Assembly: GCA_004431415.1 (NCBI GenBank)
Contig: QPMI01000418.1
Location: 1 to 64,000, forward strand
Direction: 5' to 3'
Length of the DNA stretch: 64,000 nucleotides
Source: Cyanophora paradoxa CCMP329
Lineage: Eukaryota > Plantae > Glaucophyta
A model generated the notes under the pieces. It was given only the letters and a program-made list of their open reading frames with translations, was not told where the DNA came from and ran no database searches. The position numbers and the translations under genes are program-made. Below are positions 1 to 57,294 of the stretch, in pieces. Positions within the stretch are counted from its first letter, which is position 1; each line of letters starts with the position of its first letter.

Positions 1-1286
1 AACTCGTGGCTCTGCCAGAAGTGCGTCACGCTGCTCGGCAACAAGGGCCTGCTCGTGATCTTGGGCCTGCAGAGGCGAAAGAGGGGCGACACGGCCACCG
101 TCTCCAAGCAGACGCGCGACCACATGGTCGAGAGCGTGCTCGGCGGGCCGAAGCCAAAGACCACGAAAAAGGCAAAGGATACGGCCGCTGACTTCGGATC
201 GTCCGTCATCGAGCCCAACTCCGCGCAGTCGAAAATCAGAAAGGCGAAAATCGTGGCGCCGAGCATGGAAGATTTAATGGCAACCTTCGCGGACGCGCAA
301 GAGGTGAAGCAGAACATAGAGAAGGCGAAAACGGGACTGCAGGCGGCGCAGGCAAACGGGCTGGAGGCGCTCGAGAAGGTGATCACGGAAATCAGCGAGA
401 CGGGGCGGTCGGTCTTCATCCTCAACAAAAAGAATCCCGACGGAAGCACGCGGTACGACATACGACAGGCGCGCCAGTCGCGCTACTGGGTGCTCTTCAA
501 CACACACAAGCGCCTGGGAGAGGCGCGAGAATTCGAGGCGGCGGCGCTGCGCGACAGCCTCGCAGAGGTGCTCTCGGACGCAGAATTCTACAAGTTCATC
601 CGCTTCAATTTGAAGGAAGAGAACGGCAAGTACAAGGACGACACGTACGCCAACGCAATCATCGGAATTCGCGTGCAAGGGGGCGTGGAGGTGGGGCCGA
701 CGGACGGGGCGCTGCACGCCCACGTGCTGGTGACGATCGATCACATATCGAACCTGCAGGTGCTGTGGGCGAATTACGACTGGGTGGTGCTGCTCAAGGA
801 GAAGGAGCCGGCACCACGACGGTGTACGAGCGGCTGCACCAAATTCTGTCCGCGAAATTCACGGCGGCCGGCAGCGCCTCGTAGACCAGAAGAGAGCAGA
901 GGCAGGGCCTCAGCCGAGCATCGATACGATGGTGGAAATCGCAGAGCTCGAGCGCATGCTGACGGAAGAGAAGATAGGCATGGGGAAAGATCCGCCCACC
1001 GTCCTTGCGTCGCTGATCCAGAGGAAAATTACGCGAGCAAGCTGCAGGAGTACCTCTCGAAGACGCTGCCCGACAAGCAGAGGCGCGATTTACTGAAAGA
1101 GTGGTCGCACGCGCGAAACACGAACAACACCGACAACAACACGGACGGTACCTCTTCACGATTTTCCAGGCGGACGCCGGCCAGGCGGACGACCCCCGCT
1201 TTGCGCCGCAGGCCGCGGAAATCGGCGATCTGAGGGCCAGGGGCCGAGGGCGCGGAAAGGCAAGGGGCGCGGAAGGGGCAGGGTAG
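1..1286 (+). CDS. HUH-superfamily rolling-circle replication initiator endonuclease (5' end outside window; apparent frameshifts at ~810-1020 and ~1145)
   Basis: Frame 1 is open from base 1 (WLCQKC). Motif I-like SRYWVLFNT, motif II EVGPTDGALHAHVLV and motif III LQEYLSK (YxxK) occur in canonical order. Alternative frames (VYERLHQILSAKF; MVEIAELERMLTEEK; GRYLFTIFQAD) read better in places, indicating single-base indels. Confidence 0.75.
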
Positions 1287-1313
1287 CGGTAATTGTTCTG
1301 ACGCGCCCGCAAG

Positions 1314-1577
1314 ATGTTCGAGGGGCATGCACCCACTCGGACGTCATCACCGTAATCTGCGGCGCGCTCTTCCTGGTTTCCGAGCTCCTGGGCGGCACGG
1401 AGCGCGTGCGTCCCAACACGTGCTGGGCGCCCTGAAGGCGGCGGCCCTGAGGGTCGTGCGCCGCGGCGAGCCCGAGCCCGAGCCCCCCCGAGCAGCAGAG
1501 GCGCGAGAGCGTGCAGGCGATCGGCCCGCACCACGTCGACATTCAGATGACGCAGACCGGTACGCGTTTTTTTCTAG
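1314..1577 (+). CDS. Small viral membrane protein (frameshifted in this sequence)
   Basis: Promoter motif plus ATG at 1314. Spliced across frames it reads MFEG..THSDVITVICGALFLVSELLGGTERVRPNT-LGALKAAAL, with one hydrophobic helix. Confidence 0.55.
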
Positions 1578-1589
1578 AGAACATGGGAA

Positions 1590-1955
1590 ATGGAGACTCC
1601 CGCGAACAGCCCCAGCGCAGAGGCTCCGTCGTCCTGCCGGCAGCAAGCAGCAACAGTACGAGCACCAGCAGCACAGCGTTCCCTTGGCTTCTTAGGACTT
1701 ACGCGCGAAAGAAGCAGCAGCAGCCGAAGGAGCCGGCCGAAATGGCGGCTGACCTGGATCGGTGCACCCGCCGCCGCCATCGCGAGCTACGCCAAGCGGG
1801 TCGAGCAAGTACACCCCCAGATGGCAGAGGACGCCAGGGCGTACGCGAAAAACCCCGCCGCGAGCCCGCCCGTGATGGCCGCCGTCATCGACCGGCTGCA
1901 GTGGGCGCTGCACGAGGAGGGGGAGCGGGTGAGGAATTTCTTCATGCCCAAGTAA
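1590..1955 (+). CDS. Viral hypothetical protein (121 aa)
   Basis: ORF preceded by the promoter motif (TTTTCTAG...GGAAATG); its stop abuts the next motif. Confidence 0.6.
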   Translation: METPANSPSAEAPSSCRQQAATVRAPAAQRSLGFLGLTRERSSSSRRSRPKWRLTWIGAPAAAIASYAKRVEQVHPQMAEDARAYAKNPAASPPVMAAVIDRLQWALHEEGERVRNFFMPK

Positions 1956-1976
1956 ATTTCTGAATGGGCCCTAACA

Positions 1977-2164
1977 ATGTCGTCCATGCTCCCGAGCCTC
2001 GATGATATCACCAGCGATTCCCGCTACCTGGGCAGCCTGCTGACCCTCGGCGCGGTCGCTACATGTCGCCCGCCCGCTACTACCTCGTGCGGATCCTCGC
2101 CGCGCAGTTCGCGGGCTACTACTTCGTGGGGCCCTACCTCCTCAACGGCCTGAGGAAGGCATAA
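1977..2164 (+). CDS. Small viral membrane protein, ~62 aa (frameshifted)
   Basis: Motif plus ATG at 1977. MSSMLPSLDDITSDSRYLGSLLTLGAV...RYYLVRILAAQFAGYYFVGPYLLNGLRKA*, with two hydrophobic segments. Absent from the ORF track. Confidence 0.6.
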
Positions 2165-2187
2165 TTTCTCAGGCCCCTTCCTAAATA

Positions 2188-2637
2188 ATGTCCTGCGTCA
2201 ACCTCTACGTCCAGTCGAACGGGGAGACGCAGGATTCCGAGGGCTTCTGGCGCCTCAGGCTGAACCAGATCCCCTCCGACATCGACACGCTGCAGATCAA
2301 GGGCGTCTACCTGGAGCTGAGCACGACCGCGATTCCGGACCCGGAGACCGCGAAAACCGTCAACGTTCTGCTGATGGACGTTCCCGACTTGAACGTCACG
2401 ACCATCTCGAACGTCAACACGTGCATCAACAAGGTCGTGATCCCGACGTGGGGCCACGACGGCCTGGAAAACACCATCCTCTACTGGTTCGAGGTGCCCA
2501 TGGCCGTGCGCCCGAACTACGTCGCGTACGACAAGTTCCAGGAGCTGCGCGTGCGCTTCACCGACATCACGGGCGCCACCAAGAAGAACAACGCCTTCAT
2601 CGTCAAGAACTTCGGCCTCTGGGCCTTTGCGAAATAG
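2188..2637 (+). CDS. Minor capsid (penton) protein, single jelly-roll, Polinton/PLV-type
   Basis: 149 aa, beta-rich. N-terminal LYVQS...FWRLRL and C-terminal FQELRVRFTDITG match the pattern I recognise for polinton/PLV pentons. Needs HHpred or structure confirmation. Confidence 0.6.
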   Translation: MSCVNLYVQSNGETQDSEGFWRLRLNQIPSDIDTLQIKGVYLELSTTAIPDPETAKTVNVLLMDVPDLNVTTISNVNTCINKVVIPTWGHDGLENTILYWFEVPMAVRPNYVAYDKFQELRVRFTDITGATKKNNAFIVKNFGLWAFAK

Positions 2638-2657
2638 ATTTTCGCAGGCCCCCTTAA

Positions 2658-3134
2658 ATGCGCCTGATCATATTCCCGCGGAAGGGCTCGGGCGTCAAGA
2701 CGCGCACCTTTGCGGGCGTGCCTGGCTACCCCTCGCCCCTTGCTTACAGAGTCGATCTTGTAACCGCCTCTGGTCCAATTAAATACGGGCTGCTGCACAG
2801 CCTCAGTCACATCCGTCTCGGTGAGAGCGCATGGCAGGACTTGGCCTTAATCGTAGAATTCGAGTACAGGGGGGTAGACACGCTAACGGGCGATCACTTT
2901 TACAGGGTACGGGTAGCAAGGGAGGGGTACTCGCTGCCGAACGGCACGGGCGGGGAATACTGGGAGCCGAAAATACGCGATGCCTCCGAGGCCTACCGCT
3001 GGCTGCGCGACGAGCAGATAGTTATCAGGCCCGATTACCCCTACGCCGACGTTTTCTGGCAGGTGCCCGTGGGCCGCTGGACAACGGGCGAGGTGAGCGG
3101 CAAGCTGAAGTGGACGTGGGACGCGGAGCATTAG
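2658..3134 (+). CDS. Viral hypothetical protein (158 aa)
   Basis: Clean ORF with the promoter motif (TTTTCG...TTAAATG). Confidence 0.75.
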   Translation: MRLIIFPRKGSGVKTRTFAGVPGYPSPLAYRVDLVTASGPIKYGLLHSLSHIRLGESAWQDLALIVEFEYRGVDTLTGDHFYRVRVAREGYSLPNGTGGEYWEPKIRDASEAYRWLRDEQIVIRPDYPYADVFWQVPVGRWTTGEVSGKLKWTWDAEH

Positions 3135-3159
3135 TTAATTTTTCTCTCTCGCGGATAAA

Positions 3160-6100
3160 ATGTCGATGCTCGACGACCCCTGGCGCATGGCCATCCCGAA
3201 TCCGGACGAGGTGCTGAACGGTGCCTTCGCGATAGACGGGAGCCTGAGCGTGAGGGGAATTTACGCGGACGAGATAAGGCTGCGGCAGGGATCCACGTAC
3301 AACGATTTCCTGACGACCATAGGCTCGCTGGCGGACTACGGGGACCTCACCGCAATTATCAAGGGGCTCTGGGGGGTCACGACCGAGACGGGCGTGGACT
3401 GGAACATTATTAAGAGGGCGGCCGACGTGAAAATCGCAAACTCCGTCACCGCAAAGGATGCCACCCTCAACCTCGTAAAACTGACTCTAAAGGGCGCAGA
3501 GGGGGACGTGAGGCCCGGGTACAACGCCCTCGAGCGCATCGCGGGCCCATTGCGCCACATCTACTGGAGCCGACAGGCGCTGCCGAGCATGGAGCCCGAG
3601 CAGTACAGGCGCGACAGGGAGGAGTTTTTCGCGTGGTTCGACCACTTCAAGGTCAACATCCGCGCCCTGAGCGCCGACAGGACGGGCGAGACGCCGGAGA
3701 CGACGGGCGGGGCCGCATCCCAACGGCGCCCGACGTGCTCCCCGATCGCTCGGACTGGGCGAAGACGCAGAACTGGGCGCTGAAGGACCACTTCCACGAC
3801 GAGAGGTACGCCCTCGTCAAGCACCCGCACGTGAAGGCCGACATCACGGACTGGGCGCACCGCCACCTGTACGACGACATCATCGGCGGGCCCAAGGTGC
3901 CGGGTGCGATTCCGGGTGGGGGTACGGGTGGTGGAAGCACGGGAGGTGGGGGTACAGGCACCGGGGGTGGGGGTACAGGCACCGGGGGTGGGGGTACAGG
4001 CACGGGGGGCGGAGGGGCTCCAGCGGCACGCCAGTGGGCGGGGCGGGGGCAGCAGCGGCTCGGGTGGCGGCGGCTCAGGCGGGGAGGGCATGGATAAGGT
4101 AGCAGGCCTCGCCACTTCAACGGCCATCTTCGGGGGCGCCCTCATCGTAGGCGGCATCAAATACTACAAGGATCGGAAGGGGTTCGTGAGGCAAATCGAC
4201 GAGCTGAACGCGAGACCCCCCATTAAATTCGATACCGAGGACGCGCAGCGCGAGTACTACAAACTCGAGAACGAAAAGAAGCAATGGAGCGAGCTGAAAG
4301 ACAAGGAAATGACAGAGGTCGCGGAGAAGAAGGCGGAAGCGAACAAGCTGATGACAGACGCGCAAAGGCAGGAAGAGAGCGCTCTCACCGCGCTAAGGTC
4401 GGCAGAGCGCCAGGTCGCGGAAGAGCGCACAAAAATGATACTCGATGCCGAGGAGGAGCTGAAGAGGATAAACGAGCAAAGGGAAGCCGCCAAGGCGAAA
4501 AAGCTGCAGGAAATTGAAGCGCTGACCGCAGGCACCGAGCTGCTTGAGGCGCAGAGGAAAGAGATCGAGGATAGGAAGAAGAAATTGGAAAAGGAGGCAG
4601 AAACGAGAAGGCAGCTGCTGGAAGAGGAAGAGGAAACGAGGAGAAAGGCAGGAGAGCTGCAAACGGGGGCGGTGCAGGAGGCGAACAGGCTCCGGGAGGA
4701 AATCAAAAATTTAAAGGAGGCCGCCGAGCGCGCGGACGAGCAGTCGAAAAAATTCAAGGCCAACGCGGACGGGCTGGCACAGAGGCTGCTCAAGTACGCG
4801 GCCACCGCAGAGGCACGCTCGCCCATGGGGACGGCCGAGACGCAGACGACGCCGAGGCCCGATCCGAGGCCGGCCGCCGAGAGGCTGCCCTTCGCGCGGC
4901 TGGGTAGGAGCGACCAGGTGGAAGAGCTCATTGGCCTCACGCTCGAGGATCAGAGGGCCCTCTTCGACGCGTTAGAGCAGCGGCGCAGGGCGGACGAGGA
5001 GGCAGCTGCCAAGACAGAAGAGGAACGACTGAAGGCAATGCAAACTGCATCAGACGAGGAATTTGCACGGCTGGAGGAGCCGAAGGTAGCGGAGCGTAAG
5101 CGACGACTGGAGACGTTCAGGGGGGCGCAGATGGATTTTTACCGCTCGGAGCTCAAAAAACTCGCAGATAAAAAAGCATCAGGGGACAGGGTCCGCGCCA
5201 TGGAAGAGAACATGCGCGACTTTAGCTACGTTATGGATCAGCTGACGGGAAGGGGTCAGAAAGACGCCGAAGAACTGAGGAGAAAGATGGCCGATGAGAA
5301 GTGGAAAAACTTTGAGCGTCAGGCTGTTCAGAGGCCCATCAGCGATGCCATCTGGATAGCATACGGCGACGTGGAGGAGATGCACCGCGAACTGCGGACG
5401 GAAGCGAGCCTATGGCGGGGAGCCCTCGAATGGTCATTTTACCGGATGCAAAAGGGAAAATTCGCGGCAGAGCTGCGAGCCAATCCGAAAACGGTGATCG
5501 GCGCACAGAGCGCGTACGTCGACATGGTCAATTACGTGGAGAAGCTGAGCAAGTTTTGGGAAAAGCGAAGAGCCGTCATTCCAGCGGAGGGGCTTGCACA
5601 GTACGACGCCATGGTGCGCGATCTGGAGGCCTTTAAACGTGAGCATCCACCCGCCAAATACAAGCTTTACATAGATACAACGGCGTTCATGGGCGAACTA
5701 AGGAAGAGAGGAGACGAGGCCAAGAGTCAGATCGAGGAGCGCTACAGAAAGGCCCAAGCGGACAAGGAGTACGCAAACAGGGTGATTGAAGAGCGGAAGC
5801 AGCAGGCGAAGGAGAGCGCGGCTAGACGCAACGCCGAGATAGAAGAGCAGAGGCGGAAGATCGCAGAGCGCAAGGCGGCAGAGGAAGAGGCAAGAAAGAC
5901 CAAGGTAGAGACAGAGTACCAAGCATTGAAACGGGAGGCCAATCAACTGTTAAAAAGGAGGGGAAGGGCCTACGCCGACGAGGGCGCGGGCGTGGGCTCG
6001 GCCAGCCCCGACGATATCACGCTCGCGGAGAGGGACGACGTTTCCGTGGAGGAAATGCGCCCGGGCACAGCTCGCCTGCCCTCCGAGGGCGTATTCCAGA

Positions 6101-8385
6101 CGCTCGACAGGCGCGTGATGGGCGACTCGGACGTTATTTTGCGCAACGCCCTGATGCCCTACGGCGACTGGAACCGCGCCACCGCCGACGCCCTTGCGGA
6201 TTTCGACCTCGAGCGATTCACCACCAAAGAGCAGCGCGACGCCTACCTGGGGCGCCCGAGGGCAAGGCGGCCCGGGGTGGCCAAGGAGGCCCTCAGCGCA
6301 GAGACCCTCTTCTCGGCGGCGGGTACGGCGAACAACGACGGCATGCCCTTCGGCGTGGCCGACCTCTTTCAGGGGGCGGGCATCGACCTGGTGGGCGCCG
6401 GGCTCGGGGGTACGGGCTCGAGGGTCGGCAGACGACTGGGGGCGGGGGCGGCCGGCCTCGGGCTGACGGCGCTGGGCGGGCTGCTCTCGTCGTACCAAGC
6501 CCTGGAGAGCGGACAGATCACGCAAGCGCAGTTCATGGACAACTTCCGCGACAGCATGATCATGACGGTGGGCTCGTTTGGCATTCAGCAGGGGCTTACC
6601 TCAGGTCTCCAATTCCTGAAGCCCGGAATGAAAATCGGGTTCGTGGGCGGCATGGGCCTGTCGATTCTTGCAGGAATGATCGCGGGCGTCTTCGTGGACA
6701 TCCTGAACAAGAGGGACGTGGGTACCATCATCAAAAACTTTTTCATGTACCCCATCAACTGGGCGGCCGATACAATTCAGTTCATCGGTAAGATCGCGCA
6801 GGACATGGTCGAGTGGGGCATCGAGACATTCGGCTCCGAGGCCGAGCAGCTGAGGATGCGGATTCGGCGAATCGAGGGTGAGCTAGGCGACAACCCCATG
6901 GGCGTTTTTACCGGAAGGGGCGGCGACAACGGGGCAATGAGACTCATCACGGAGATCGAAATGCTGAAGATGGATGCGGGAAACCAGAAGCAGCCCGAAA
7001 GCCTGCAGAAGTTCATCCACGCGCTTGACAACGCAATCAACGATTACCGTACCCCCAAGGACCAGAAGACTCTGCTCGAAATCGATCGCGCGACGGTGCT
7101 CTACCTATCGCAGCTCACGGAAACAATGCAGGATGGGCTGCTGGCCCTGAACATCGGCCTAAAGCAGGTGATGCTGGATCTAAAGGAGATGGTGACGGCG
7201 GAGGCCAAGAACAGGAAGCGCGTTTTAATTGCCGTCTACCAGGAGGGCCTCAACAGGATCAATCACATTGAGGCATTAAGGCGCGAATTCGGCTCGGCGA
7301 TCCGTCACTCGGGCGTCTCGTCGAACGGAGGGGCGCAGGTGGCCCGCCTGGCCGACGCCAACTCGCGCCTCGAGATTCCCGGTACCTTTCGCATGCAGGA
7401 TTGGTGGGAGGCCGAGGCCTTCAGGAACTACGGGGCCTTCATAGACAACGGGATCAATTCGCAGAGCCCCAAGGCCAACTGGCTGGTACCCAAGGCGTAC
7501 GTCGATAAATTGGTGGACAGGCCTGCAGCCCCTTACACCAAAAAGATCGCCAAAGGCATCGAGTACTGGGCACCCGAGCCAGGCCAGCCCGTGTTTGCAT
7601 CGCAGAACTACGAGTGGCACATGGCGCCGGGGGCGAGCCAGGCCGTCAGCACCGTGGGCGTCGCCGTACCGCAGCTGGCGGCCGTGGCGCATACAGGAGA
7701 GTACCAAGATCTAAAAGGGAGGCCGACGATACCGACAATTCCAGCAACGTGGGCGTGGGGTAGCATCACGGGGAAGCCGAGCACGTACCCCCACGCAGAT
7801 CACCAGCACACCATCTCTCAAATCAGCGACTGGACGGCCCCCGACTTGTCGAACATCACCGTGGACTGGGAAACCCAAGTTACGGGCAGGCCAGCCACCT
7901 TCCCCCCCTCGACTCACAGCCACAACGTGGACTGGGAAACTCAAGTTACGGGGAAGCCTCTCACCTTCCCCCCCTCTACGCACAGTCACGCAGAGTACTC
8001 GCTCACCGGCCACGGGCACAGAAACGTGAACATGGATGCGTACATAACGCACGGCACGTCCTTCCACTCGTACGCTGCGTACACGGAGTTTAACATCAAT
8101 TCAACATACACGGTGACGTTCAACATTACATTCGGACAGGCGTACGACACTGGAGGCGGACTGGGGACCCCAGCAAACCCAACGCCGGTTATTAACGTAA
8201 CCCCCTCGTTCGACATCAATCCCGGCGGCAGCACGGATGTCGATTTCTACGGGGCCAACGTCACGGCGGTGAGTCACACTGGCTTTACAGTTAAAGTGAG
8301 ATTCCAACCCAGAATGACGGTCACGCCCACCCAAATTGTCCAGCTTTTTATTCATTGGACCGCGATCGGCAAGCTGCTTATGTAA
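3160..8385 (+). CDS. Giant (~1740 aa) virion protein: coiled coil, tape-measure-like hydrophobic segment, fibre repeats and C-terminal H-type-lectin-like domain (frameshifts ~3710 and ~4010-4050)
   Basis: ORFs 3160-3783, 3633-4097 and 3904-8385 overlap at G-runs, and only 3160 has the promoter motif. Contains HxH fibre motifs (HPHVKADITDW, HQHTISQISDW), a 22-aa repeat VDWETQVTG(R/K)PxTFPPSTHSH, and ends ...TGFTVKV...IHWTAIG. Confidence 0.75.
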
Positions 8386-8409
8386 TCGATTTTCTGATGC
8401 AATCCAAAA

Positions 8410-9612
8410 ATGTCGGTGGCTGTCCCTCTATTCACCTATGCCGCCAGCGTGAACCACAAGGCAGATCACACGATCAAGGAGACGGTCCTCGGAAACCAGG
8501 CCACCGAGACCCCCTACAACGCCACGGCCGTCCCCTTCTCCGAGGCCGACCTCGTGCGCGTCGGCGAGCTGCGCTGCGACAAGATGCGCACGCGGGAGGG
8601 TGGGTCGGCCGTGCCGGGGCGCGTGAGGACGCAGAGGCTGACCGTCACGAACGGGGCCTGGGACGGGAGCGGGTACACCACAAACACCCTGACGTTCAAC
8701 AACGCAGATGGGGAGGCGAATGCGGCCTTGTACGTGCAGGGAGGGGGCGCTAACGTGGTCGGGGGATTGAGAGTCAACGGGGCTGCGACGGTTACCGGCG
8801 TCGTCAACGCAGTCTCGGAGCTCAACTCCCCTAACATAACCGGAACCGCTAATCTGTCCAATGCAACTATCGGTGCGCCGACATCCATCGCAACTTCCGT
8901 CTTGAACGTTAAAAGCAAAGACGTCGGAAGCGGACAATGGGCAAGCCTGTGGTGGGATTTCGACAACCGACACTACATGGGCGTGAAAAACTACAGAGCG
9001 GCCGATCAAGCCACCGTGACCACATGGAACGATTCAGCGGCCTGCCCTTTCCTTGTTGCTGCCCTCGGGTCTACGACAGGTCGCTCCATCGCAGCCGGGG
9101 GCACGGTCAACACCGCAGGAAGCGATTACGCAGAGTACATGCTAAAGAAATCCAACGACTTTGCCTTCAACAAGGGCGATATCTGTGGGGTGAACGGCTC
9201 AGGACTCCTAACCAATCAATTTACGGAGGCCGTCACTTTCGTGGTGAAGAGCACCAACCCATCCTTCGTAGGGGGCGATACCTGGGGCCAGTCCCTTGGA
9301 ATGGCCCCCCTGAAGCCGGAAACGGACGACCCCACCGCACTCGCAGCCTACGAAGCCGCCCGCGCCGCCTGGGAGTCAGCGGCAGAGGCGAATCGGCAGC
9401 TGGTCGATCGGATTGCATTCTGTGGACAGGTCCCCGTGAACGTCAGCGGTGGGGGCCCGGGAGATTACGTGGTACCCACCCCAGGACCCAACGGAGCAAT
9501 CGCCGCCCAGGCCGTGGCCGCCCCATCCTTCGACCAGTACAGGGTCGCCGTCGGTAGAATCATTCGAGTCGTTTCAGATACGCAGGCGCTAATTATCGTG
9601 AAGGTTGTCTGA
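8410..9612 (+). CDS. Fibre/spike protein with C-terminal intramolecular chaperone auto-cleavage domain (Peptidase_G2-like)
   Basis: Beta-rich N-terminal part, then GSDYAEY...KGDICG...STNPSFVGG...RIAFCGQVPV...GPGDYVVP, typical of phi29 gp12/GA-1 type chaperone domains. Confidence 0.8.
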   Translation: MSVAVPLFTYAASVNHKADHTIKETVLGNQATETPYNATAVPFSEADLVRVGELRCDKMRTREGGSAVPGRVRTQRLTVTNGAWDGSGYTTNTLTFNNADGEANAALYVQGGGANVVGGLRVNGAATVTGVVNAVSELNSPNITGTANLSNATIGAPTSIATSVLNVKSKDVGSGQWASLWWDFDNRHYMGVKNYRAADQATVTTWNDSAACPFLVAALGSTTGRSIAAGGTVNTAGSDYAEYMLKKSNDFAFNKGDICGVNGSGLLTNQFTEAVTFVVKSTNPSFVGGDTWGQSLGMAPLKPETDDPTALAAYEAARAAWESAAEANRQLVDRIAFCGQVPVNVSGGGPGDYVVPTPGPNGAIAAQAVAAPSFDQYRVAVGRIIRVVSDTQALIIVKVV

Positions 9613-9619
9613 TGAGCGA

Positions 9620-11506
9620 TTACCGCACAAATACAATAATACCCTGATTGTTGTTCTTCCACGTGAGATTGGCGGCACCTTGCGAGTACGCGGCCTCGCC
9701 CCAGAACACGCGCTCGGTATCATGGGAGCTGCTTGCCGTGACCCAGGGGTCCGTGATCGTGGCTGCACGGAAGAGTACGTTGGCTTTGGTGTTTCGATCC
9801 TCGGAGCCTAGGCCCCCAGACGAGGCCGTCAGAGTGACTGTTCGTCCTGGGAATTCCGACCCTCTGACCATCTCCGACAGCGGGAAAGAAATCCAGTACG
9901 TGCCGTTGCCGGTCTTGAATAACAGCTCCGAGCGCGACGGGCCTGCCTGCAAGGTGTAGTTGCGCCAGTAGCCCGACGTCGAGGGGACGGTGCCGTTCGC
10001 AAGGTACGTGCCGTAGGCGTACGACGGGGCGGTGGACGTCCACGAGGCGTCCCCCGTATCTCCTGCGTACATTGCCCCGGAGCTCGGTTGCGCTGCAAAA
10101 GACATCCAACCCCCGCCACGAATAGTCATGTCGCAGTAGATGTCCAAAAGAGTGCCGTCTGCCAGGCGGAACTTGTACGTCCCGTCGCCGAGGGCCGTGT
10201 TGACGGCCTTCAGCTGTTTGGCGTTCTGCGAGTAGCACGTGATCGCAGAGGACGACGAGGCGGGGCCCTCCTCTCCCACGATGTTGACGGCCTTGACCGT
10301 GTAGCTGTACTCGGTGATGAAGAGGGTCGCGCTGTCGGTGAAAGGGCTCGAAACGTTGTGTCCGACTTTCGTGCTCCCCCTGTAGACGTTGTAAGACGTG
10401 GCCGTGCCGGTGGCCGGGGCCGTCCAGGTGACGGTGACATTGGGCGAGGCCGCAGAGGGCTGCGCGGTTGATATGGTTGCAGGCGCGGCGGGGTCTGTGG
10501 TGACGTACGTCGCAATACTCTTCGGTCCCTCCCCTCCCGAGTTCGTCGCGGAGACCTGGTACTCGTACCCCGTACCCCAGACCGTGGTGGCATCGCTGTA
10601 GGAGTTGGTCGCGGAGTCTGCGAGGTAGGCCCCGTCCCTGTAGATCTTGTACCCCGTGGCCCCCGTGGGCGCCGTCCAGCTCAGGCTAACGGGCTGCTGC
10701 TCGTCGTTGGGAGCTGACGCCGTCACGTTCGTGGGGGCGTTCGGCATCGTCCAGACCAGGAGCGGATCGGACTTTTCGTATTCGACCCCGCCCACGATGC
10801 CGGCCACCTGGTAGGAGTACTCCGTACCCCACGCAAGGGCAGTGCTATCGTCGATGTACGAGGTAGATAGGGCGCTGCTTGCGAATCCGATGGGGGTACC
10901 GTCCCTGTAAATTCGAATCGAGTCCGCGCCCTCCATGGCCACCCAGTTGATTGTGACAACAAAGGTGGGCTTCGGGAAGCCCGCAGACGCAGGGCGGCCC
11001 CCTGCGATAAAATCGCCGTAGGTCTGGGCCGTGGCGGTCGTGAGCGCAGTGTACGCCTCGATCGTGGGCGTGGAGCCGCCTATGCCTTGGAATTGAATGT
11101 AATTGCTCCTCGCGCCCTCGTGGGTGTAGAGCAGCGACTGTGCGTACGTGGTGGGGGGCACTTTGCCGTCCGAGCCTGTGCTGCTGCTGCCCTGCTCGCG
11201 AACCGCAGCCACCCGGTAGAGTCGGAGCTCGCCGAAATTAAAGGGCGAGTTCGTGTATGTGAGCGTGGGTGCGTTCACCGTGGCCACCAGCGTCCAGGTG
11301 CCGTTGAGGCTCGGTGCCCTATACACATTGTACTTGACGGCGTCGGTGACGGCGACCCAATTCATTTGAAATCCAAAGGTACCGCCCCCATTGTTGAGCA
11401 CGGAGCCCGATCGCACCTGGGGCCTGCCCACCGTGAGCGAGATCGGCTCCACGCCGTACTGCGGGGCCTGCACCACCTGCTTCTTCACGAATACGAAGCG
11501 GGGCAT
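9620..11506 (-). CDS. Fibronectin type III repeat protein with C-terminal fibrinogen-like domain (628 aa; likely start ATG at 11506)
   Basis: About four FN3 units (LSWTAPTGATGYKIYRDG...YEYQVSATNSGGEG), then GDGTYKF...DIYCDMTIRGGGWM. The promoter motif lies 17 bp upstream of 11506. Confidence 0.85.
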   Translation of the reverse strand: MPRFVFVKKQVVQAPQYGVEPISLTVGRPQVRSGSVLNNGGGTFGFQMNWVAVTDAVKYNVYRAPSLNGTWTLVATVNAPTLTYTNSPFNFGELRLYRVAAVREQGSSSTGSDGKVPPTTYAQSLLYTHEGARSNYIQFQGIGGSTPTIEAYTALTTATAQTYGDFIAGGRPASAGFPKPTFVVTINWVAMEGADSIRIYRDGTPIGFASSALSTSYIDDSTALAWGTEYSYQVAGIVGGVEYEKSDPLLVWTMPNAPTNVTASAPNDEQQPVSLSWTAPTGATGYKIYRDGAYLADSATNSYSDATTVWGTGYEYQVSATNSGGEGPKSIATYVTTDPAAPATISTAQPSAASPNVTVTWTAPATGTATSYNVYRGSTKVGHNVSSPFTDSATLFITEYSYTVKAVNIVGEEGPASSSSAITCYSQNAKQLKAVNTALGDGTYKFRLADGTLLDIYCDMTIRGGGWMSFAAQPSSGAMYAGDTGDASWTSTAPSYAYGTYLANGTVPSTSGYWRNYTLQAGPSRSELLFKTGNGTYWISFPLSEMVRGSEFPGRTVTLTASSGGLGSEDRNTKANVLFRAATITDPWVTASSSHDTERVFWGEAAYSQGAANLTWKNNNQGIIVFVR

Positions 11507-11545
11507 TTTCCTATACGATCCGAAAAAATATCTGCGCCGGGGTAA

Positions 11546-12226
11546 ATGACTTCCAACTGGTACCAGACCCTCAAAGGCGACCTGGACGTTGGCGATAACT
11601 CCAAGGATTTCGCGCGCATTCCCTCCGGCAGCTACGTCGACGTCTTCCTGCAGAATCCCGTCGTGATTCAGGTCGTTCAGAACGCCTACGCCACGCCCAA
11701 GATCTACTCCTACCAACTCTTCTTCGACCCTTCCAACCTCAGCGCAGAGGTAATCGAGCTCCTGCACGAATCCGGCCTCGTGAAAAAGGTGGCGCCTGCC
11801 ACGGCCACGGCCAACGTCCTGCGCTGTCTCGAGGTAAAGTTCAGGGAGACGGGGTACGGCCCCACCGTGAACCGGTACCCCAGTTCTTCGAATCTTCCGG
11901 GTACGGGAATTTACCAGATGAGGGGTACGCTCAAGGGCGACGTGCTCTTCACGAAATTCAATCCAAGTCCCGCGACCCTGGGGGCCCTCTACACGGGCGG
12001 CAACCCACGCGGCTCGACTCTACCCCGCTTCCCCTTCACCTTTTTCAGGTTCCAGGTCTTCCCCCTCTCCTACGCCGCCGACCAGCCCCACTTCAGCACG
12101 GGCGCCAGCCTCTGCGCGGAGCTGCGTGAGTGCTCGATTTCCTACGCGTACGGCACCGACTTTGACTCTGTGCCTGGGGTCCGCGTCATGAACATCGGTG
12201 GCGACATCACCCTCTTTCACGGATAA
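11546..12226 (+). CDS. Viral hypothetical protein, paralogue A (226 aa)
   Basis: Clean ORF with TAAATG start; collinear motifs shared with the downstream gene. Confidence 0.8.
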   Translation: MTSNWYQTLKGDLDVGDNSKDFARIPSGSYVDVFLQNPVVIQVVQNAYATPKIYSYQLFFDPSNLSAEVIELLHESGLVKKVAPATATANVLRCLEVKFRETGYGPTVNRYPSSSNLPGTGIYQMRGTLKGDVLFTKFNPSPATLGALYTGGNPRGSTLPRFPFTFFRFQVFPLSYAADQPHFSTGASLCAELRECSISYAYGTDFDSVPGVRVMNIGGDITLFHG

Positions 12227-12249
12227 TCTTTCTCATTTGAGGTCGCAAA

Positions 12250-13062
12250 ATGCCGACCACCTCGGCCACCATCGTGAAGACCGTGTCTGCCGGCTCGATC
12301 GTACCCGATTTCTACGGCAACGCTGGGAACGTGGCCAACGCAGGGACGGACAAGGTGGATTGGGACGGAAACTACGCCACCCCGCTCACCGTGAGGGTCC
12401 AGAATCCCGTCATGTTGCGCGTCACCTCCAACGATTTCGAGAATCCCGCCTCCTGCTCCGTGTACGTGTACTTTGACATCGACTCGGGCGTGAGCGCGGA
12501 TGAGGCGGAGGCGCTCTGGCTCTCGGGCCTCCTGAAAAAGATAGAGCCCTCTGTGCCTGATCGGCCCGCCATTCGCGTGCTCGAACTCAAGTTCACCGCT
12601 AACACCGCCCTCACTCGCAAATTTGGGAATGGTGCGAATCCGAACATCAAAACGCATTTAGATGGCGCCCTCATCGATGCCGCACACAAGACCACGCAGG
12701 CCGTTCCCTTTGAGATGTACAACCTCTGGAAGATGACCGCAAAGGAGATGATGACGAATGCCACCACGGGCGGCGCCTCGGGTACCGATTATTCATACGG
12801 CGCCTCGAATCCCCGTACCCAGGTCTGGCCCCGGCTCCTCTTCACGAAATTCACTTTCAAATTGTACAACAACATCGCCGGAATGCCTACCTCTGGAATG
12901 GTCGTGGGCTCTACCCTCATGGCCGAACTAATTGAGGCAGAGGCGGACTACACGACTGCGACTACAAACTCGACAGCGCCAGGCGCCGGAGCCGAAGTTT
13001 ACGTGGCCTGGGAAACGGTTGGTCGCGAGTACGACACCAAGATTCACACCACTAGCGTCTAG
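12250..13062 (+). CDS. Viral hypothetical protein, paralogue B (270 aa)
   Basis: Clean ORF. Shares QNPV, SGL(V/L)KK, LE(V/L)KF, PRxxFTxFxF and GxxLxAELxE with 11546-12226. Confidence 0.8.
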   Translation: MPTTSATIVKTVSAGSIVPDFYGNAGNVANAGTDKVDWDGNYATPLTVRVQNPVMLRVTSNDFENPASCSVYVYFDIDSGVSADEAEALWLSGLLKKIEPSVPDRPAIRVLELKFTANTALTRKFGNGANPNIKTHLDGALIDAAHKTTQAVPFEMYNLWKMTAKEMMTNATTGGASGTDYSYGASNPRTQVWPRLLFTKFTFKLYNNIAGMPTSGMVVGSTLMAELIEAEADYTTATTNSTAPGAGAEVYVAWETVGREYDTKIHTTSV

Positions 13063-13416
13063 ACTGGCTAAGCTGCATTAGCGCCTGTGCCGCCTCCATC
13101 ATCTCCCGAATCTCCTCGCTCTTCTCCTGTAAATTGGCGTACCCCCTCCTCTTCTTGCGAATATCCGACATTGATGCCCAGCGCAGGTTCTCCCTCCTGT
13201 AGTCCAGCGGGTTGCCGTTGATGTGTTCCACGTAGCGTCCACGTGGCGACTTCCCGAGGATCAGTTGGGAGAGGTAGTGCTTGCGCCCTCCAAACGTCTT
13301 GCTCACCCTGTCCCTGTCCACTCTCCAGGGAAACTCCAAGGCACTCGGGGTACGTCCGAGTTGACCAGGACGTTGTAGGCGACGTCTTGCGAGTCGGTGC
13401 ACCGGAGCAGGGCCAT
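13052..13416 (-). CDS. HNH endonuclease (HNH_3 type), likely start 13416, frameshift ~13348
   Basis: YVEHINGNPLDYRRENLRWAS. The promoter motif TTTTTCTG...AAAATG gives N-terminus MALLRCTDSQDVAYNVLVNSD in a neighbouring frame. Confidence 0.75.
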
Positions 13417-13439
13417 TTTGCCCTAGGTTCAGAAAAACC

Positions 13440-13950
13440 TGGGACTTGGGACTTGGACTTGGGACTTGGGACTTGGGAAGAGTTGAAACCCAGGTCCCGG
13501 CCCAGACTTTCTCCAGGATCAGAAATTTGTCAGACAAGTCAGGTGAGTTTTTCTACCGACTTTTTTACTCCTACCACCCCTCGTACTCTTTTTTACTCGT
13601 AGTCTTTTTTACTCGTATCCCATCTCGTACCCTCCTTCTCTCGACATCTCGCACGAATACTCCTACCCCTCTTCACATCCTTTTTCGGTTGCATACTCTC
13701 GTGAGCTTTCATGTCCAGTATCATGCTACAAGTCGTACACCAGTTCAGACTCTACCTCGCTTGAAATCTCACCTGGAATGTCACCAGAAACGTCGTATCC
13801 AAATTTCCGTACCCCTTTCTAAGTCTGCCCGGTGGTTAGGGACTTGGCACGGCAAACTCTCAGATCCAGAGAAAGTCTGGGCCCAGACCCTGAGTCTAAC
13901 TCTTCCCAAGTCCCAAGTCCCAAGTCCCAAGTCCCAAGTCCCAAGTCCCA
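13440..13950. repeat. Non-coding cassette bounded by ~90-bp imperfect inverted repeats with outer (GGGACTT)n arrays
   Basis: 13440-13531 and the reverse complement of 13850-13950 both read (GGGACTT)n-GGGAAGAGTT-N16-CCCAGACTTTCTC..GGATC. The interior has TTTTTACTCGTA-type direct repeats. Confidence 0.9.
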
Positions 13951-14023
13951 GGATCGCGCCAAGTCATAACTGAATAGTCGGCCAATTTTTACAAGTATGT
14001 ACAATGGAATGACGCAATACTAT

Positions 14024-15073
14024 TTACAGCATCTCAAAGTCAGAATCATCGTCATCGGAAACCAAGTCAATCGGGGCCTCGGGCGCGGACTTAAGGGGAA
14101 TGCGGGGAAGGGCCTGCGCTGCCTGCACTAAGTCCTGCCGCTCCTGCTCGCGCTGCGCCGCCAAGGCCGCTGCCGCCTCTGCCTCGCGCCGCTGCTGAGC
14201 CTCGACGCGCGCCCTAAGTTCCGCTGCCTCCTTCTTCTTGCGCTCGGCAATCTTGGCCAGCGTCATCTCGCGACGAAGAAGGCGCTCGTGACGCAACTTG
14301 CGCCGGAGTTCGGCCATTTCGCGCTTGGCGATGATGCGCTTCTCAATGGTCTTGACGTGCTGAGTCAGGCGCTTGCTGAAGTGTGACGTGACGCGAGAAC
14401 GGGCAATGCCAGCGCCGATCTTCAAGTCTTTTTCGTGTTCCTTGGCGGGATTCTTGACTCGCTCGGAGTTGTCGGTGAATGACGTGGTCTCCATGAACTT
14501 CTTCTTGACGATTGACTTGGTCTTGATAATGCGGCGCTTGCGAGTCGGGTTTTCGTTGTCGCCTTCAGAGTCGGAAGAGGACTCAGAGTCGTATGGAATC
14601 GGCACGTCAAAGTCGATAAAGTCGTTGATGTCAGACTCGGCGTCAGAGGCCTCGGACTCGGCGTCATCGACTGGCTCGGGAGCGGGCTCGGCGACGGGCT
14701 GAGGGGCAGATGACGACGATGACGGAGGGGGAAATTCGTGAAGACTTGAGGGGATAGGCCCAGGCGAGCGTCTCGGCGGCAGACTCGGCGAAAAGCTTGG
14801 GGTCGCCCCAGCCAGTGGGAGTCTTGACCCAGCCGGGACGGGGGCACGTCGACGGGCTCGGGCTTGGGCTCGGCTTGGGTTGCTTGGACTTGGGCAGAAG
14901 GGTGGATACAAAGTTGAGGTTGATGGTATGGAAGCCTTCTCCGCTGTGAGCTTGGTAGAGGTACCCCAGCTTGCGGCACGCTTCTCCATTTCACGGGTAG
15001 GCCAATCGCGGGACTTAGCCCACATCTCACGGGCCTTGGCAAGGTCCTCGACAAGCTCAGAGGGAATCGACAT
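14024..15073 (-). CDS. Viral acidic/basic coiled-coil protein with C-terminal SIM-like motif (probable regulatory/early protein)
   Basis: MSIPSELVEDLAK..., D/E/S tract, basic RKRRIIKTK, coiled coil and C-terminal PIDLVSDDDDSD. No late-promoter motif; the ATG directly follows a polypyrimidine-CAG. Probable compensating frameshifts ~14720-14975. Confidence 0.7.
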   Translation of the reverse strand: MSIPSELVEDLAKAREMWAKSRDWPTREMEKRAASWGTSTKLTAEKASIPSTSTLYPPFCPSPSNPSRAQARARRRAPVPAGSRLPLAGATPSFSPSLPPRRSPGPIPSSLHEFPPPSSSSSAPQPVAEPAPEPVDDAESEASDAESDINDFIDFDVPIPYDSESSSDSEGDNENPTRKRRIIKTKSIVKKKFMETTSFTDNSERVKNPAKEHEKDLKIGAGIARSRVTSHFSKRLTQHVKTIEKRIIAKREMAELRRKLRHERLLRREMTLAKIAERKKKEAAELRARVEAQQRREAEAAAALAAQREQERQDLVQAAQALPRIPLKSAPEAPIDLVSDDDDSDFEML

Positions 15074-15409
15074 CTGCGCAAAGGGAAGAGAGATCAGCAA
15101 AGGCAAAACGTGAGGTGACTGAGAGAGCGGACTTGTGAAAATTCGGAGAGGCGGGATTCCTTGGGCTGAGAGAAGGCGGCGAACCCGTTTCAAGAGTGAG
15201 CCAAAATGGCGGCGGACCGCGGTTTTGTGGGCGATTTTTTTCGCGGTCTAGTTCGCAACGGAAAACGTTGCCAACTGGCCTGAAAAAAGCCAAATTTAGC
15301 GTTGGGCCGAAGGCAGAAAAAGGGAGCCGGCCTGACGGAAATCGCCCGAGTGCGTCCGCCGAAGGTCGAGTCTCGGGCCGGGGTACACCCTCAGGGCCCC
15401 CCTGGCCCC

Positions 15410-15879
15410 TCACCCTGGTAGTACCCTCTCAAAGGGATTTTCGAAGCCGTACAATTCTTGGTAAGTCTCGTAATCCGGGCTGTACCCCCTCACAATCTGC
15501 GGGAGCCCCATTGAAAGCCTCCGTCTATCCTCTCTCAATTCCCTGCGGAAAAGACTGCGGTCGCTTCGAGCTTCGCGCGTCACGCCAGCTGGGCGTGGTC
15601 TATGATTGTTAGGGTTGTCGTAGCCTGGCCCCACCAGCCTCACGAAATTTTCGCGTATGGCCTCGGGGAGACTCTGGAAACGGTTCGTTGCGTGGAACTC
15701 AATCCATTCATTGAATCGACGCGGATATTGACGGATGACTTCAAGCACGCCCTGTAAGTTGGGCTCTGGTGTTACGTCGGGATGTCATGTCCTGTGAGGT
15801 GCCAGCGCCAGAACTCGCGCAGCCTCTCGAATGCCATATGCAACTCAAAGGGGAAATCGTAATAGAGATTGCCTGACAT
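15410..15879 (-). CDS. Viral hypothetical protein, ~156 aa (frameshift ~15780)
   Basis: Motif TTTTCG...AAAAATG at 15879. MSGNLYYDFPFELH...GHDIP joins DVTPEPNLQGVLEVIRQYP if one C is restored in a C-run. Confidence 0.65.
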
Positions 15880-15929
15880 TTTTCTCCCGTCCGAAAATTT
15901 CCCCGCTTTTGAGTCTAGACTCTGATTCC

Positions 15930-15996
15930 AACTCTTCCCAAGTCCCAAGTCCCAAGTCCCAAGTCCCAAGTCCCAAGTCCCAAGTCCCAGGTCCCA
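15930..15996. repeat. Third (CCCAAGT)n heptamer array
   Basis: AACTCTT followed by about 8 CCCAAGT units; same GGGAAGAGTT anchor as the arrays at 13440 and 13905. Confidence 0.95.
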
Positions 15997-16136
15997 TTTT
16001 TCTCCCATTTTGACTCGAGATTTTGCCCAAGTCCAAATCCGGACCCGGGATTCGAACCCTCGTTTTCGATCGATTTCACGCGTGAAAAACGCACTTTTCG
16101 GCCTTTTCGCATTTATTTTCTCTACCCCGGCCCAAA

Positions 16137-16274
16137 ATGGACCCCCTCCCCGAAATCGCGATCGAAAATGGTCGCGATCGTCTCGTTTTCGCGATCGTCG
16201 TGATCGGAATCGTCATCGCGATCGTCGCGATCATGGTGATCACCAGCCTCGTCTACGGTACCCCCCAGCTGTGA
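16137..16274 (+). CDS. 45-aa single-pass membrane microprotein (last viral gene)
   Basis: MDPLPEIAIENGRDRLVFAIVVIGIVIAIVAIMVITSLVYGTPQL*, preceded by ATTTTCTCT...CAAAATG. Confidence 0.7.
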   Translation: MDPLPEIAIENGRDRLVFAIVVIGIVIAIVAIMVITSLVYGTPQL

Positions 16275-16276
16275 CC

Positions 16277-16297
16277 CGGAGGTTATAAGAACCTCCG
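16277..16297. other. Perfect 8-bp hairpin CGGAGGTT-ATAAG-AACCTCCG at the apparent virus/host border
   Basis: Seen directly, 2 bp after the stop of the last viral gene. Function not established. Confidence 0.6.
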
Positions 16298-16963
16298 CAA
16301 TCCAAGCGTCACTTCCGAGTCTCGAGCTCTCGGGGTTGACTTTTCGCGTTTGGCCCATTGTTGGCCCTCTTATATACGGCCGGCGCCGGCGCCGCGAGCG
16401 AAGTGGAGCCAGAGCTCGAGCGTGCATCCAGCTGCACCGATATCGATTCGCGAATATCGCGAATGCGACTCGTGAGTCGTGAATGTGACTCGCGGCGCGC
16501 GCGCGCGCGCGCGCGGCGCGCGCTAGCGCTAGCGCTAATTATATATAACGTTCACATGCACGCTAGCCGCTGAGCGCATGCGCCGCGCGCGGCCGGCCGC
16601 GCGGAGCCTCTTGATTTCTTCTAGATCTCGCCGCCGTAGACGTCGACGTACGCGTAGACGTAGCTAGGCGGCGCCGCAGCGCCGGCGCCGGCCCGCGGCG
16701 CCGCGGACGGCCAGACAGATGCAAGCGAGAAAGGCGCACGTCGCGCAGCTGCGCATGCGCATGCAGCGCTTCACGCGGGGAATCGCGCCGCTGCCATCCC
16801 TCGAGGGGTACGGCTCGCTGCGGTACCCTTGGTGTACCCTTGCATCACAGCAACTCGGCAGCGAGACTCGGCGGCGTTCCATCGCATTGACATCTGCGTC
16901 TCAGCGGGAACACTTGTCGTTGCCGGAGCCGCCCTCCATCCGCCCGCCCGCCAGCCGGAGAAG

Positions 16964-23982: not shown

Positions 23983-24520
23983 TGATATCATAGTATATAT
24001 CTAGAAAGGCCTGGCAGACTGGCAGAGTGAATTGGTGGCGCGCGGCGCCGGAGTTGACGTTCAAAAGAAGGTCACGATTACAAGTTATGATCATTCATGA
24101 TCAATTGCAAAGACTGCATCAGAGCCACGGTGCACACACAACACGGCGCAGGCACCCAGAGAGAATGCCAATCATCGATCGGCGCGAAGGCTCCCATGCA
24201 TGGCCACAATCTTGATCGCGGACGCGCGCCTCACAGCTCGCTCTCCACGTACGCCGCCTGCGACGGGTCGGCGCGGATCGGCCGGAGCTTCGCGGGGCGC
24301 GGGCCGGGCCGGCCCGGCGGGGCGGACCTCGGAGGCGGCCTGGAGGAGCTCGTCGGCGGCGGCCTCGAAGAAGGCCTCGTCAGCGGCGGCGGCCTCGCCC
24401 ACGAAGAGGCCCGCCGCGGCGGCCGCCCGCCCCTCGAACAGATCCGCGAGCTCCGCCGCGTCGTCCTGCGCCGTCGACGTCGCCTCCTCCGCCTGCGCGC
24501 GCGTTCGGCGGGCCGGGGGA
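23983..24520. repeat. Left arm of a ~550-bp inverted duplication (partner 30040-30655)
   Basis: Reverse complement matches 30040-30655, including an exon-like segment (DEAFFEAAADELLQAA). Confidence 0.9.
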
Positions 24521-56800: not shown

Positions 56801-57294
56801 ACCTGCGGCAAGCCCTCTACGGGGCCGAGGATCCGGGGTACATCCCACTCATCCTCTCCCTTCCCGCCACCGCCCCCCTCCTCCTCCTCCACTTCGCCCA
56901 GCCCGACCCCATCAGTTTTATCAGTCTCATCACCGCGGCCTCCCTCGCGGGTTTCGCGCTTCAATCCCTCCTCGAAAGTATATCCCCCCGCGGCCCCCTC
57001 CGCCAGGCCCCGTACCCGAACTACACCCCAGCTACGGTGCTCCGCTTCCTGCTCCTCACCGCCCTCCTTATGCGAGCACACGCGGGGTCGGCACTGCCGA
57101 ACCTTGCTCTCTCCTGGCCCCCCGTCTCCGCGTCGCTCGCGCTCGCGCTAGCTTTAGCGCTAGCCGCGCTGCTGAGGGCTGCATTACTGAAAATTTATAC
57201 CCCTGTTGCTCCTTCCCCCCTCGCTGAAAGGGTACACAAGGGCAACGAACCCCAGCCCCCAGCACCAGCACGCACGTGCCCGTCTCTCGCCGCT

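Follow-up and report, generated by a model that had tools for sequence, protein, structure and literature searches.

The window analyzed here is a 64,000-nt stretch of the Cyanophora paradoxa CCMP329 genome (contig QPMI01000418.1). Positions 1 to ~16,000 form a gene-dense viral block, with a coding fraction of 98% up to 13,436. The boundary between virus and host falls somewhere within ~16,003–16,400, a CpG-rich junction zone (16003..16400, unstranded) from which the DNA is host-like; past 16.3 kb, the frequency of C/G runs rises from 0.7 to ~3 per kb. A nonviral FAF1/UBX-like flanking gene with intron-like interruptions follows on the forward strand (17297..18990, extent approximate; Pfam E 0.0011). 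This arrangement bears out the original prediction of an endogenous viral block joined to host DNA. One stretch near 16,045 resembles a tRNA, but its use as an att site was rejected for now (ARAGORN, 0 genes). Genes for a capsid protein, ATPase, helicase, polymerase and integrase were not seen within the visible ~16 kb and would be expected upstream. There was no pPolB, RVE integrase or cysteine protease, the genes that together with terminal inverted repeats mark Maverick-Polintons (Polintoviricetes), among the genes of the visible part, and the viral-end ORFs scanned had no Pfam match to VLTF2, VLTF3, RuvC, PDDEXK, Mriya_1/48/50/51 or SF3/SF2 helicase.

The block opens with the 3′ part of a forward-strand gene (1..1286, gene start upstream of position 1) encoding a long HUH endonuclease of the mriyavirus family, for which catalytic activity is predicted from the sequence. 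Motif I (nt 478–504), motif II (688–729) and the motif III tyrosine (1042–1062) align with mriyavirus-type HUH proteins, with E-x-G, H-x-H and Y-x-x-K kept; the protein also has an N-terminal Cys-pair region, and motifs II and III are separated by an insertion. A gamadvirus-like profile built from IMG/VR loci matched the ORF at E 2.4e-20, and scans of contigs with the HUH alignment gave gamadvirus-like loci only. Neither Pfam nor PHROGs recognizes the protein. Its Atlas clusters are REP_ORF2-G2P and 117-like_vir (0.90–0.91), with a recognition score of 2131, under the Atlas mark of 2300. The structure model (pLDDT 85) had one BFVD match (E 6e-8, TMq 0.72), whereas a PDB fold search gave generic ferredoxin-like matches only (best Z 5.5), the HUH proteins TrwC and IS200/IS608 transposases scoring Z 4.5–4.6; PDB sequence searches returned no relevant matches. 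The reading frame is switched five times between 812 and ~1268, every time by −1, and these switches are read through in other copies. Most frame switches in this repeated region would be consensus errors. The Rep-like gene proposed earlier is thus a true member of the mriyavirus HUH family.

Five small ORFs follow on the same strand. A hydrophobic ORF (1314..1550, end approximate; frame switch near 1420) is also found in another copy (P0019). The next (1583..1955, one frame switch, second half without a Pfam match) starts with MG, which we take to be a possible myristoylation site, and is followed by a small hydrophobic membrane-protein-like ORF (1977..2164, switch near 2065) that recurs in P0012, P0021, P0025 and P0028. 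The intact ORF at 2188..2637 encodes a 149-aa candidate penton or single jelly-roll minor capsid protein. Its full-length EukProt variants are 94 to 98% identical, and environmental relatives are 51 to 83% identical. Pfam and PHROGs do not recognize it, BFVD gave no match at E ≤0.001, the Atlas gave unnamed matches below 0.9 only, and its profile had no match in the one genome searched for comparison with the PEV_22 minor capsid protein. The structure model is an eight-strand β sandwich of low confidence (pLDDT 51.6). Its jelly-roll matches reach at most Z 7.7, the value for the poxvirus scaffold, with nonviral β sandwiches scoring alike; a 139-residue chain from the capsid of Singapore grouper iridovirus scores Z 6.0. 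Penton identity is plausible but weak. A 158-aa protein of no known family, belonging to a cluster of 17 members, is encoded at 2658..3134.

The center of the block is taken up by the three fibre/adhesin genes that had been anticipated there. A giant fibre-like gene (3160..8385, forward; frame switches near 3690 and 4040) encodes a Gly-rich linker, a coiled coil and two 66-nt phage-tail repeats; it has phage minor-tail matches (PHROG E 1e-8) and, at the C terminus, a weak match to H-lectin (E 0.23). It is followed by a gene for a 400-aa fibre/tailspike-like protein (8410..9612, forward) that matches PHROG 34132 at E 7.5e-44 and whose phage-related C-terminal domain, 45% of the protein, is 40 to 44% identical to phage proteins. 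The third encodes a 628-aa fibronectin type III (FN3) adhesin-like protein (9620..11506, reverse) with no cluster mate at 90% identity. Farther right, two forward-strand paralogues (30% identity, E 4e-18) encode a 226-aa protein (11546..12226) and a multicopy 270-aa protein (12250..13062), and the reverse strand carries a gene for an HNH_3 endonuclease, with the viral promoter motif upstream and a single frame switch (13052..13416; E 2.1e-7). The HNH gene was absent from the earlier list of genes. Two reverse-strand ORFs remain: a 349-aa low-complexity basic/acidic ORF, viral or host, with a splice-acceptor-like tract before its ATG (14024..15073), and one that has the viral promoter motif and is interrupted by a single frame switch (15410..15879). 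The exact 349-aa ORF is absent from the protein collection searched, and the 3′ piece of the second ORF (15410–15769) has no homologue of 65 to 209 aa; thus, the 13,980 to 16,000 region is only a candidate part of all copies.

A common promoter could be confirmed: ATTTTCT, with at most one mismatch, precedes 9 of 12 gene starts, compared with no more than 7 of 12 for the best 7-mer in either 1000 random-ATG sets or 1000 shuffles, a test that is somewhat inflated because 4 of the 12 starts were picked after the motif had been noticed. Contrary to the original prediction that no terminal inverted repeat is visible, an inverted arrangement of three (TCCCAAG)n blocks had been overlooked between 13.4 and 16.0 kb. 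Two form inverted arms of ~90 nt around a pyrimidine-rich spacer of ~335 nt (13437..13950, unstranded; DNA fold z −9.9). The third (15917..16003, forward) is 95% identical to 13885–13950 over 66 nt and is the outermost virus-like feature. The block at 13437–13523 is inverted relative to those at 13860–13946 and 15926–16003, with flanks in common, and a further copy (P0057) has the right block and its flank beside the 270-aa gene. The blocks are candidates for the terminal repeat or an origin of replication. No viral contig matched the heptamer pattern, and the passages of the Cyanophora provirus catalogue at hand (PMC10120064, PMC12220804) contain no description of the blocks or the promoter.

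The element is one of many, with cluster mates in C. paradoxa. EukProt lists 29 variants of the 149-aa gene, under at least 35 accessions, and 28 named contigs carry them; the HUH model lies one to three gene numbers from it on five of the eight named HUH-bearing contigs. The gene order of this block is repeated on tig00020941, tig00021108 and tig00000144. P0063 and P0022 have the same longest contig size (8181 nt), and the HUH and 149-aa genes probably co-occur in an environmental contig. As Cyanophora HUH subtypes and environmental relatives all retain the three catalytic motifs, and given this probable co-occurrence, the pairing looks old and maintained. Related loci were found neither in viral contigs (P0001, the 149-aa alignment, P0067 or P0063) nor in metagenome or genome contigs (HUH and 149-aa alignments).

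To place the HUH protein, a tree was built from 119 alignment columns, omitting P0005, P0006, P0007 and P0062, which are without the anchor motif, and L001, which is on the same contig as L003; P0002, with 35% of columns filled, was dropped before the approximately unbiased (AU) test. The HUH of 1–1286 and three environmental proteins form their own clade (98/92), which the free tree separates from the two gamadvirus HUH clades. A joint clade with gamadvirus HUH_long was not rejected (p-AU 0.375). The new lineage suggested earlier thus holds insofar as the HUH falls outside the two gamadvirus clades, with grouping beside HUH_long still allowed. We infer that a second, short HUH gene would lie directly upstream of the long one, as in gamadviruses. 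The P0002 gene model overlaps position 1 and opens with a second HUH motif that shares 52% identity with P0067, a short environmental HUH; P0007 opens with motif I of the short-HUH type; and P0065 (long HUH) and P0067 have the same longest contig size (4240 nt). The short-then-long order is found in the gamadvirus-like loci L002, L003, L004, L006, L007 and L012, the L004 genome also carrying VLTF3 and A32.

Very likely, the element is one of the already catalogued C. paradoxa endogenous viruses (PMC10120064 Tables S1, S2 and S4; PMC12220804 Table S6). The parts of these sources at hand report, for 156 Cyanophora proviruses, RVE in 85, pPolB in 49, HNH_3 in 40, D5_N in 40, and zero in the tyrosine recombinase and protease columns, as well as 366 C. 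paradoxa capsid matches in two clusters of 272 and 94. The element's tie to either capsid cluster is limited to one contig, tig00020936, that it has in common with one of the six representatives listed. The term HUH is absent from the main text of PMC12220804 and from the columns of its Table S6.

Mriyaviricetes are delimited by HUH motifs I–III, capsid/A32 in the clade, VLTF2, VLTF3, RuvC and the further genes named with them above, the lack of DNA polymerase and integrase, and a genome of 35 to 45 kb; the visible part supplies the HUH endonuclease with motifs I–III. Among them, the Gamadviridae (Yutin et al. 2024, PMC11253617) share the HUH family, with an N-terminal extension and inserted loop, probably the short-then-long HUH order, and, in the visible part, the lack of a polymerase. 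They differ in the length of the long HUH (1640–1890 aa versus ~600–700 aa here) and, in the free tree, in its clade, and the dozens of chromosomal copies and three phage-like fibres set the present element apart; their hosts are haptophytes, whereas the host here is a freshwater glaucophyte. The mriyavirus-like Polinton-like viruses (PLVs) of the Zoravirus (VC102), VC218 and VC134 groups, as far as covered by the available parts of a 2026 preprint (10.64898/2026.06.19.733378), are likewise small, with giant-virus-like capsid modules; assignment to these groups goes by capsid HMM, Mriya48 and RVE or YR integrase. Roughly half of Zora/VC102 genomes carry HUH and 57% RVE integrase; for VC218 the figures are 28% and 62%. 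RVE or YR integrases are common in these groups. Those parts describe no HUH pair, and no member from a glaucophyte is named in the main text (0 occurrences of "Cyanoph" or "Glauco"). The same source describes chlorophyte NCLDV-like dwarf viruses, a precedent for endogenous mriyavirus-type genomes in a different host phylum.

Taken jointly, our preferred reading, which we hold at roughly even confidence, is that these 16 kb are the right end of a young multicopy endogenous small DNA virus, which is likely a member of the grade of giant-virus-related PLVs adjoining mriyaviruses. Its HUH would initiate rolling-circle copying, and chromosomal entry likely proceeds through a separate integrase beyond the visible part, given that 85 of the 156 Cyanophora proviruses carry RVE and that the Zora and VC218 groups each contain both HUH and RVE. 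The 149-aa protein would be the penton and the three long proteins vertex fibres for attachment, and CpG methylation may keep the copies silent. Of the original interpretation, the endogenous small DNA virus with a mriyavirus-family HUH stands; membership of Mriyaviricetes is conjectural, with the capsid, ATPase, VLTF2/3 and RuvC genes expected upstream. HUH plus capsid genes are no longer unique to mriyaviruses (2026 preprint). Most mriyaviruses are known from metagenomes only, and their rolling-circle replication has so far been predicted from sequence, according to the passages of PMC11253617 at hand. A mriyavirus-type nicking enzyme here would give a rare giant-virus-related example in a laboratory-growable host, and would extend the range between PLVs and small giant-virus relatives by a distinct HUH lineage and a host among the glaucophytes. 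Dozens of near-identical copies, in an alga that can be cultured and for which methylome data exist (PMC12344493), make HUH origin nicking, the reason for two HUH genes, the integration route and reactivation testable.

An unlikely but serious alternative is that the element is an integrase-free mriyavirus of a new family, with short and long HUH and a D5-like helicase, in which HUH joins viral to host DNA as in Helitron/IS91. The HUH gene order as in gamadvirus-like loci, the AU result, the HHpred matches of published Cyanophora capsids to giant-virus capsids and the lack of an RVE call in 71 of 156 proviruses all fit it. The counts of 40 of 156 for HNH_3 and for D5_N come near the number of copies counted (at least 35), and the HNH_3 share also resembles that of the smaller capsid cluster, 94 of 366. 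This would fit an integrase-free subgroup and counts against our preferred reading; equal table percentages, however, do not amount to linkage. The separate HUH clade argues the other way, as do long HUH relatives of 611 to 724 aa (the environmental clade members) versus 1637 to 1888 aa in gamadvirus-like loci, and the lack of a convincing match to any of 21 other gamadvirus-like family profiles from those loci (10 kb each side of HUH). Inverted terminal blocks suit integrase-type elements better than Helitron-type ends. Because RVE is found in 54% of Cyanophora proviruses and HUH-plus-integrase relatives were described in 2026, HUH-driven integration, the route first proposed, is a minority reading. 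The full claim that a new family of paired-HUH, integrase-free mriyaviruses has spread in a glaucophyte genome with its replication nickase serving as transposase is a long shot; if true, it would be the first giant-virus relative integrating Helitron-style, and in a culturable alga.

Also improbable is an ordinary PLV (pPolB/helicase plus RVE, with terminal inverted repeats) that acquired the HUH pair, either as a passenger or to nick and resolve its ends. Such viruses freely exchange replication modules, the pPolB and RVE counts are compatible with it, and inverted repeat blocks lie at the visible end. According to the available text of PMC12220804, a C. paradoxa PLV has a fibre with two tail repeats and an H-lectin domain, the build also suggested for 3160–8385. 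The conserved catalytic motifs and the probably old pairing with the 149-aa gene speak against this reading. Finally, a free or cocultured virus mis-joined to host DNA in assembly is very improbable: the frame switches do betray an error-prone consensus here, but copies 94 to 98% identical lie on 28 named contigs, and the genome holds two HUH subtypes (61% versus 71–86% identity to the query), a spread unexpected from a single free genome.

In the viral block, our gene list assigns 98% of window positions 1 to 13,436 to coding sequence, with short spacers. The motif ATTTTCT (at most one mismatch) lies 14 to 25 bases 5′ of the start in 9 of 12 genes, 4 of these 12 starts having been chosen with the motif already known. 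Neither 1000 sets of windows at random ATGs nor 1000 shuffles gave a top 7-mer above 7 of 12, and the common promoter of the original prediction is supported. Runs of C or G increase from 0.7 per kb in the block to ∼3 per kb beyond ∼16.3 kb (three host stretches counted), and the start of a FAF1-like gene lies at 17.3 kb. The viral genes adjoin host DNA, as had been proposed, and the junction lies within ∼16,003 to 16,400.

The gene at 1 to 1286 (+) is the 3′ part of a long HUH endonuclease gene. It carries HUH motif I (nt 478–504), motif II (688–729), and the motif III tyrosine (1042–1062), and E-x-G and H-x-H are nearly invariant in a 28-row alignment with environmental relatives. Among 1.84 billion proteins, 35 matched the HUH profile. 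Alignments of the relatives retrieved 11 IMG/VR loci of 16 to 44 kb, six of which encode a short HUH followed by an HUH_long of 1637 to 1888 aa, an order described as a gamadvirus hallmark in a section of PMC11253617; VLTF3 and A32 were found in the one gamadvirus-like genome searched. The HUH profile from these loci matches the window at E 2.4e-20, which, with motifs I to III, bears out the Rep-like assignment; 21 other family profiles from the same loci gave no convincing match in the window. In the proposed fold check, a 125-residue in-frame piece was predicted at pLDDT 85 and had one BFVD match (E 6e-8), to an unnamed 793-residue piece. Searching the PDB gave nothing specific (best Z 5.5). 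Atlas returned REP_ORF2-G2P and 117-like_vir clusters at 0.90 to 0.91, with its recognition score under its mark. The gene has five frame switches, all −1, at places where other copies read through. Since PacBio RSII reads in the published assembly of this species were corrected with Illumina data by majority rule, a procedure that according to part of PMC10120064 makes false frameshifts in multi-copy proviruses, consensus error seems likelier than decay.

A gene model overlapping window base 1 (P0002) opens with another HUH motif II, and this region is 52% identical over 29 residues to an environmental HUH (P0067, 225 aa). A short-HUH-type motif I stands at the start of P0007, from another contig. 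The same longest contig figure is shared by long HUH P0065 and short HUH P0067 (4240 nt), and by long HUH P0063 and P0022, a relative of the 149-aa protein (8181 nt). These gene models and shared figures make it quite likely that a short HUH is followed here by a long one, an arrangement conserved in free relatives. In a tree of 52 rows and 119 columns, the window HUH falls into one clade (98/92) with further Cyanophora copies and with three Logan proteins (611–724 aa). The predicted new mriyavirus-like lineage is partly supported, in that the free tree separates this clade from the gamadvirus-like clades of long HUH (99/99) and short HUH (96/97); a constraint joining it to the long clade was not rejected (p-AU 0.375).

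The 149-aa protein (2188–2637, +) was modeled, with low confidence, as an eight-strand sandwich, which a poxvirus scaffold matches best (Z 7.7, rmsd 4.5, 136 aligned). A 139-residue iridovirus capsid chain reached Z 6.0, level with non-viral folds, and BFVD returned, from the same iridovirus, a protein of 141 residues (E 0.02). We infer that both are that virus's penton, which has a single jelly roll and lacks a crown according to the portion consulted of PMC10090177. The penton originally predicted is plausible from the modeled sandwich and scaffold match, but low confidence and the non-viral folds temper it. The three predicted fibre genes were recovered as long genes with phage tail, tailspike-like, or FN3 matches. 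In the largest, a pair of 66-nt repeats is combined with a weak H-lectin match (E 0.23), like the tail-repeat and H-lectin architecture named for a C. paradoxa Polinton-like virus in a portion of PMC12220804. At 90% identity the FN3 gene (9620–11506) clusters with no other sequence, whereas its neighbours have 5 to 17 mates, which suggests a swappable host-attachment slot. An HNH_3 gene (13052–13416, −) ends the dense block.

The window's proteins cluster with EukProt C. paradoxa models. For the 149-aa gene there are 18 clusters, of which 15 come from EukProt and 3 are environmental (51–83% identity); the former hold 29 sequences, at least 35 accessions, and 28 named contigs, and the window's version is 94 to 98% identical to 13 other full-length variants compared. 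By gene numbers, the window's order recurs on tig00020941, tig00021108, and tig00000144, and the HUH model lies 1 to 3 numbers from the 149-aa gene on five of eight named HUH-bearing contigs. The element is a young multi-copy family rather than one lone insertion. The genome also holds another, more distantly related subtype of the long HUH (P0004, P0061, and P0062; P0004 shares 61% identity with the window's query), which indicates integration of at least two related strains of virus.

Three (TCCCAAG)n blocks, at 13437 to 13523 (reverse), 13860 to 13950, and 15917 to 16003, share their flanks and are candidates for terminal repeats or an origin. A long stem can form between the first two (z −9.9), and the second, with its flank, also follows the 270-aa gene (12250–13062, +, in the window) on tig00021441 (P0057). 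Beyond 16.3 kb the heptamer occurs only three times, each singly. The spacer between the inverted arms (13526–13860) is pyrimidine-rich, depleted of CpG and GpC, and contains short repeated units (CTCGTA four times), possibly origin iterons. Between the second and third blocks lie two ORFs, one with the viral motif and one behind a splice-acceptor-like tract; neither was found in other copies. Just outside the last block, 16044 to 16066 resembles the reverse complement of a tRNA T-arm; ARAGORN called no tRNA there.

C. paradoxa proviruses are already catalogued, and integrating HUH-bearing relatives described. The sections consulted report 366 capsid matches in two unnamed clusters, which HHpred matched to the capsids of ascovirus, iridovirus, and Pyramimonas virus (PMC10120064); adintovirus-like proteins (PMC8502044); and methylated, silent viral genes (PMC12344493). 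In the table portion of PMC12220804, with columns assigned to the header by our own count, 156 elements include A32 in 139, RVE in 85, pPolB in 49, D5_N in 40, HNH_3 in 40, and tyrosine recombinase in 0. Passages of a 2026 preprint (bioRxiv 10.64898/2026.06.19.733378) place HUH together with RVE in the mriyavirus-like groups Zora and VC218 and mriyavirus-type genomes in chlorophytes as endogenous; its main text names no glaucophyte. Among open-licence papers and bioRxiv, we found no literature on Cyanophora with an HUH endonuclease virus or a glaucophyte with an endogenous yaravirus. New here is a distinct HUH lineage, probably paired, that is present in many copies in a host that can be cultured.

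The likeliest reading, to which we give an even chance, is that HUH would nick an origin to initiate rolling-circle copying, in which a helicase and the host polymerase would take part; insertions would be the work of a separate integrase, and penton-borne fibres would bind the host. The paired HUH and the coinciding HNH_3 and D5_N counts in that tally (40 and 40 of 156) help the case for an integrase-free mriyavirus, its HUH serving both copying and integration, which we consider rather unlikely. That the element is an ordinary Polinton-like virus which repurposed an HUH is more doubtful still, and misassembly highly improbable.

On the host side, a repeat of 0.8 to 1.2 kb occurs four times (26046–28440, 45859–46719, and 52949–53747), two copies forming a tandem pair at 26.1 to 28.4 kb that is 99.7% identical. 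Inverted copies of ∼0.6 kb (23984–24512 and 30042–30655; 82% identical) flank a lower-GC stretch of 5.5 kb and possibly mark a DNA transposon. A host ORF at 37511 to 38548 matches DUF3592 (E 1.7e-8). The Pro-rich open frame of 2282 codons at 53683 to 60531, with repeats of 126 to 132 nt, had no Pfam match and is possibly a retroelement ORF. Tandem arrays with units of 476 and 347 nt occupy the window end (61842–64000).
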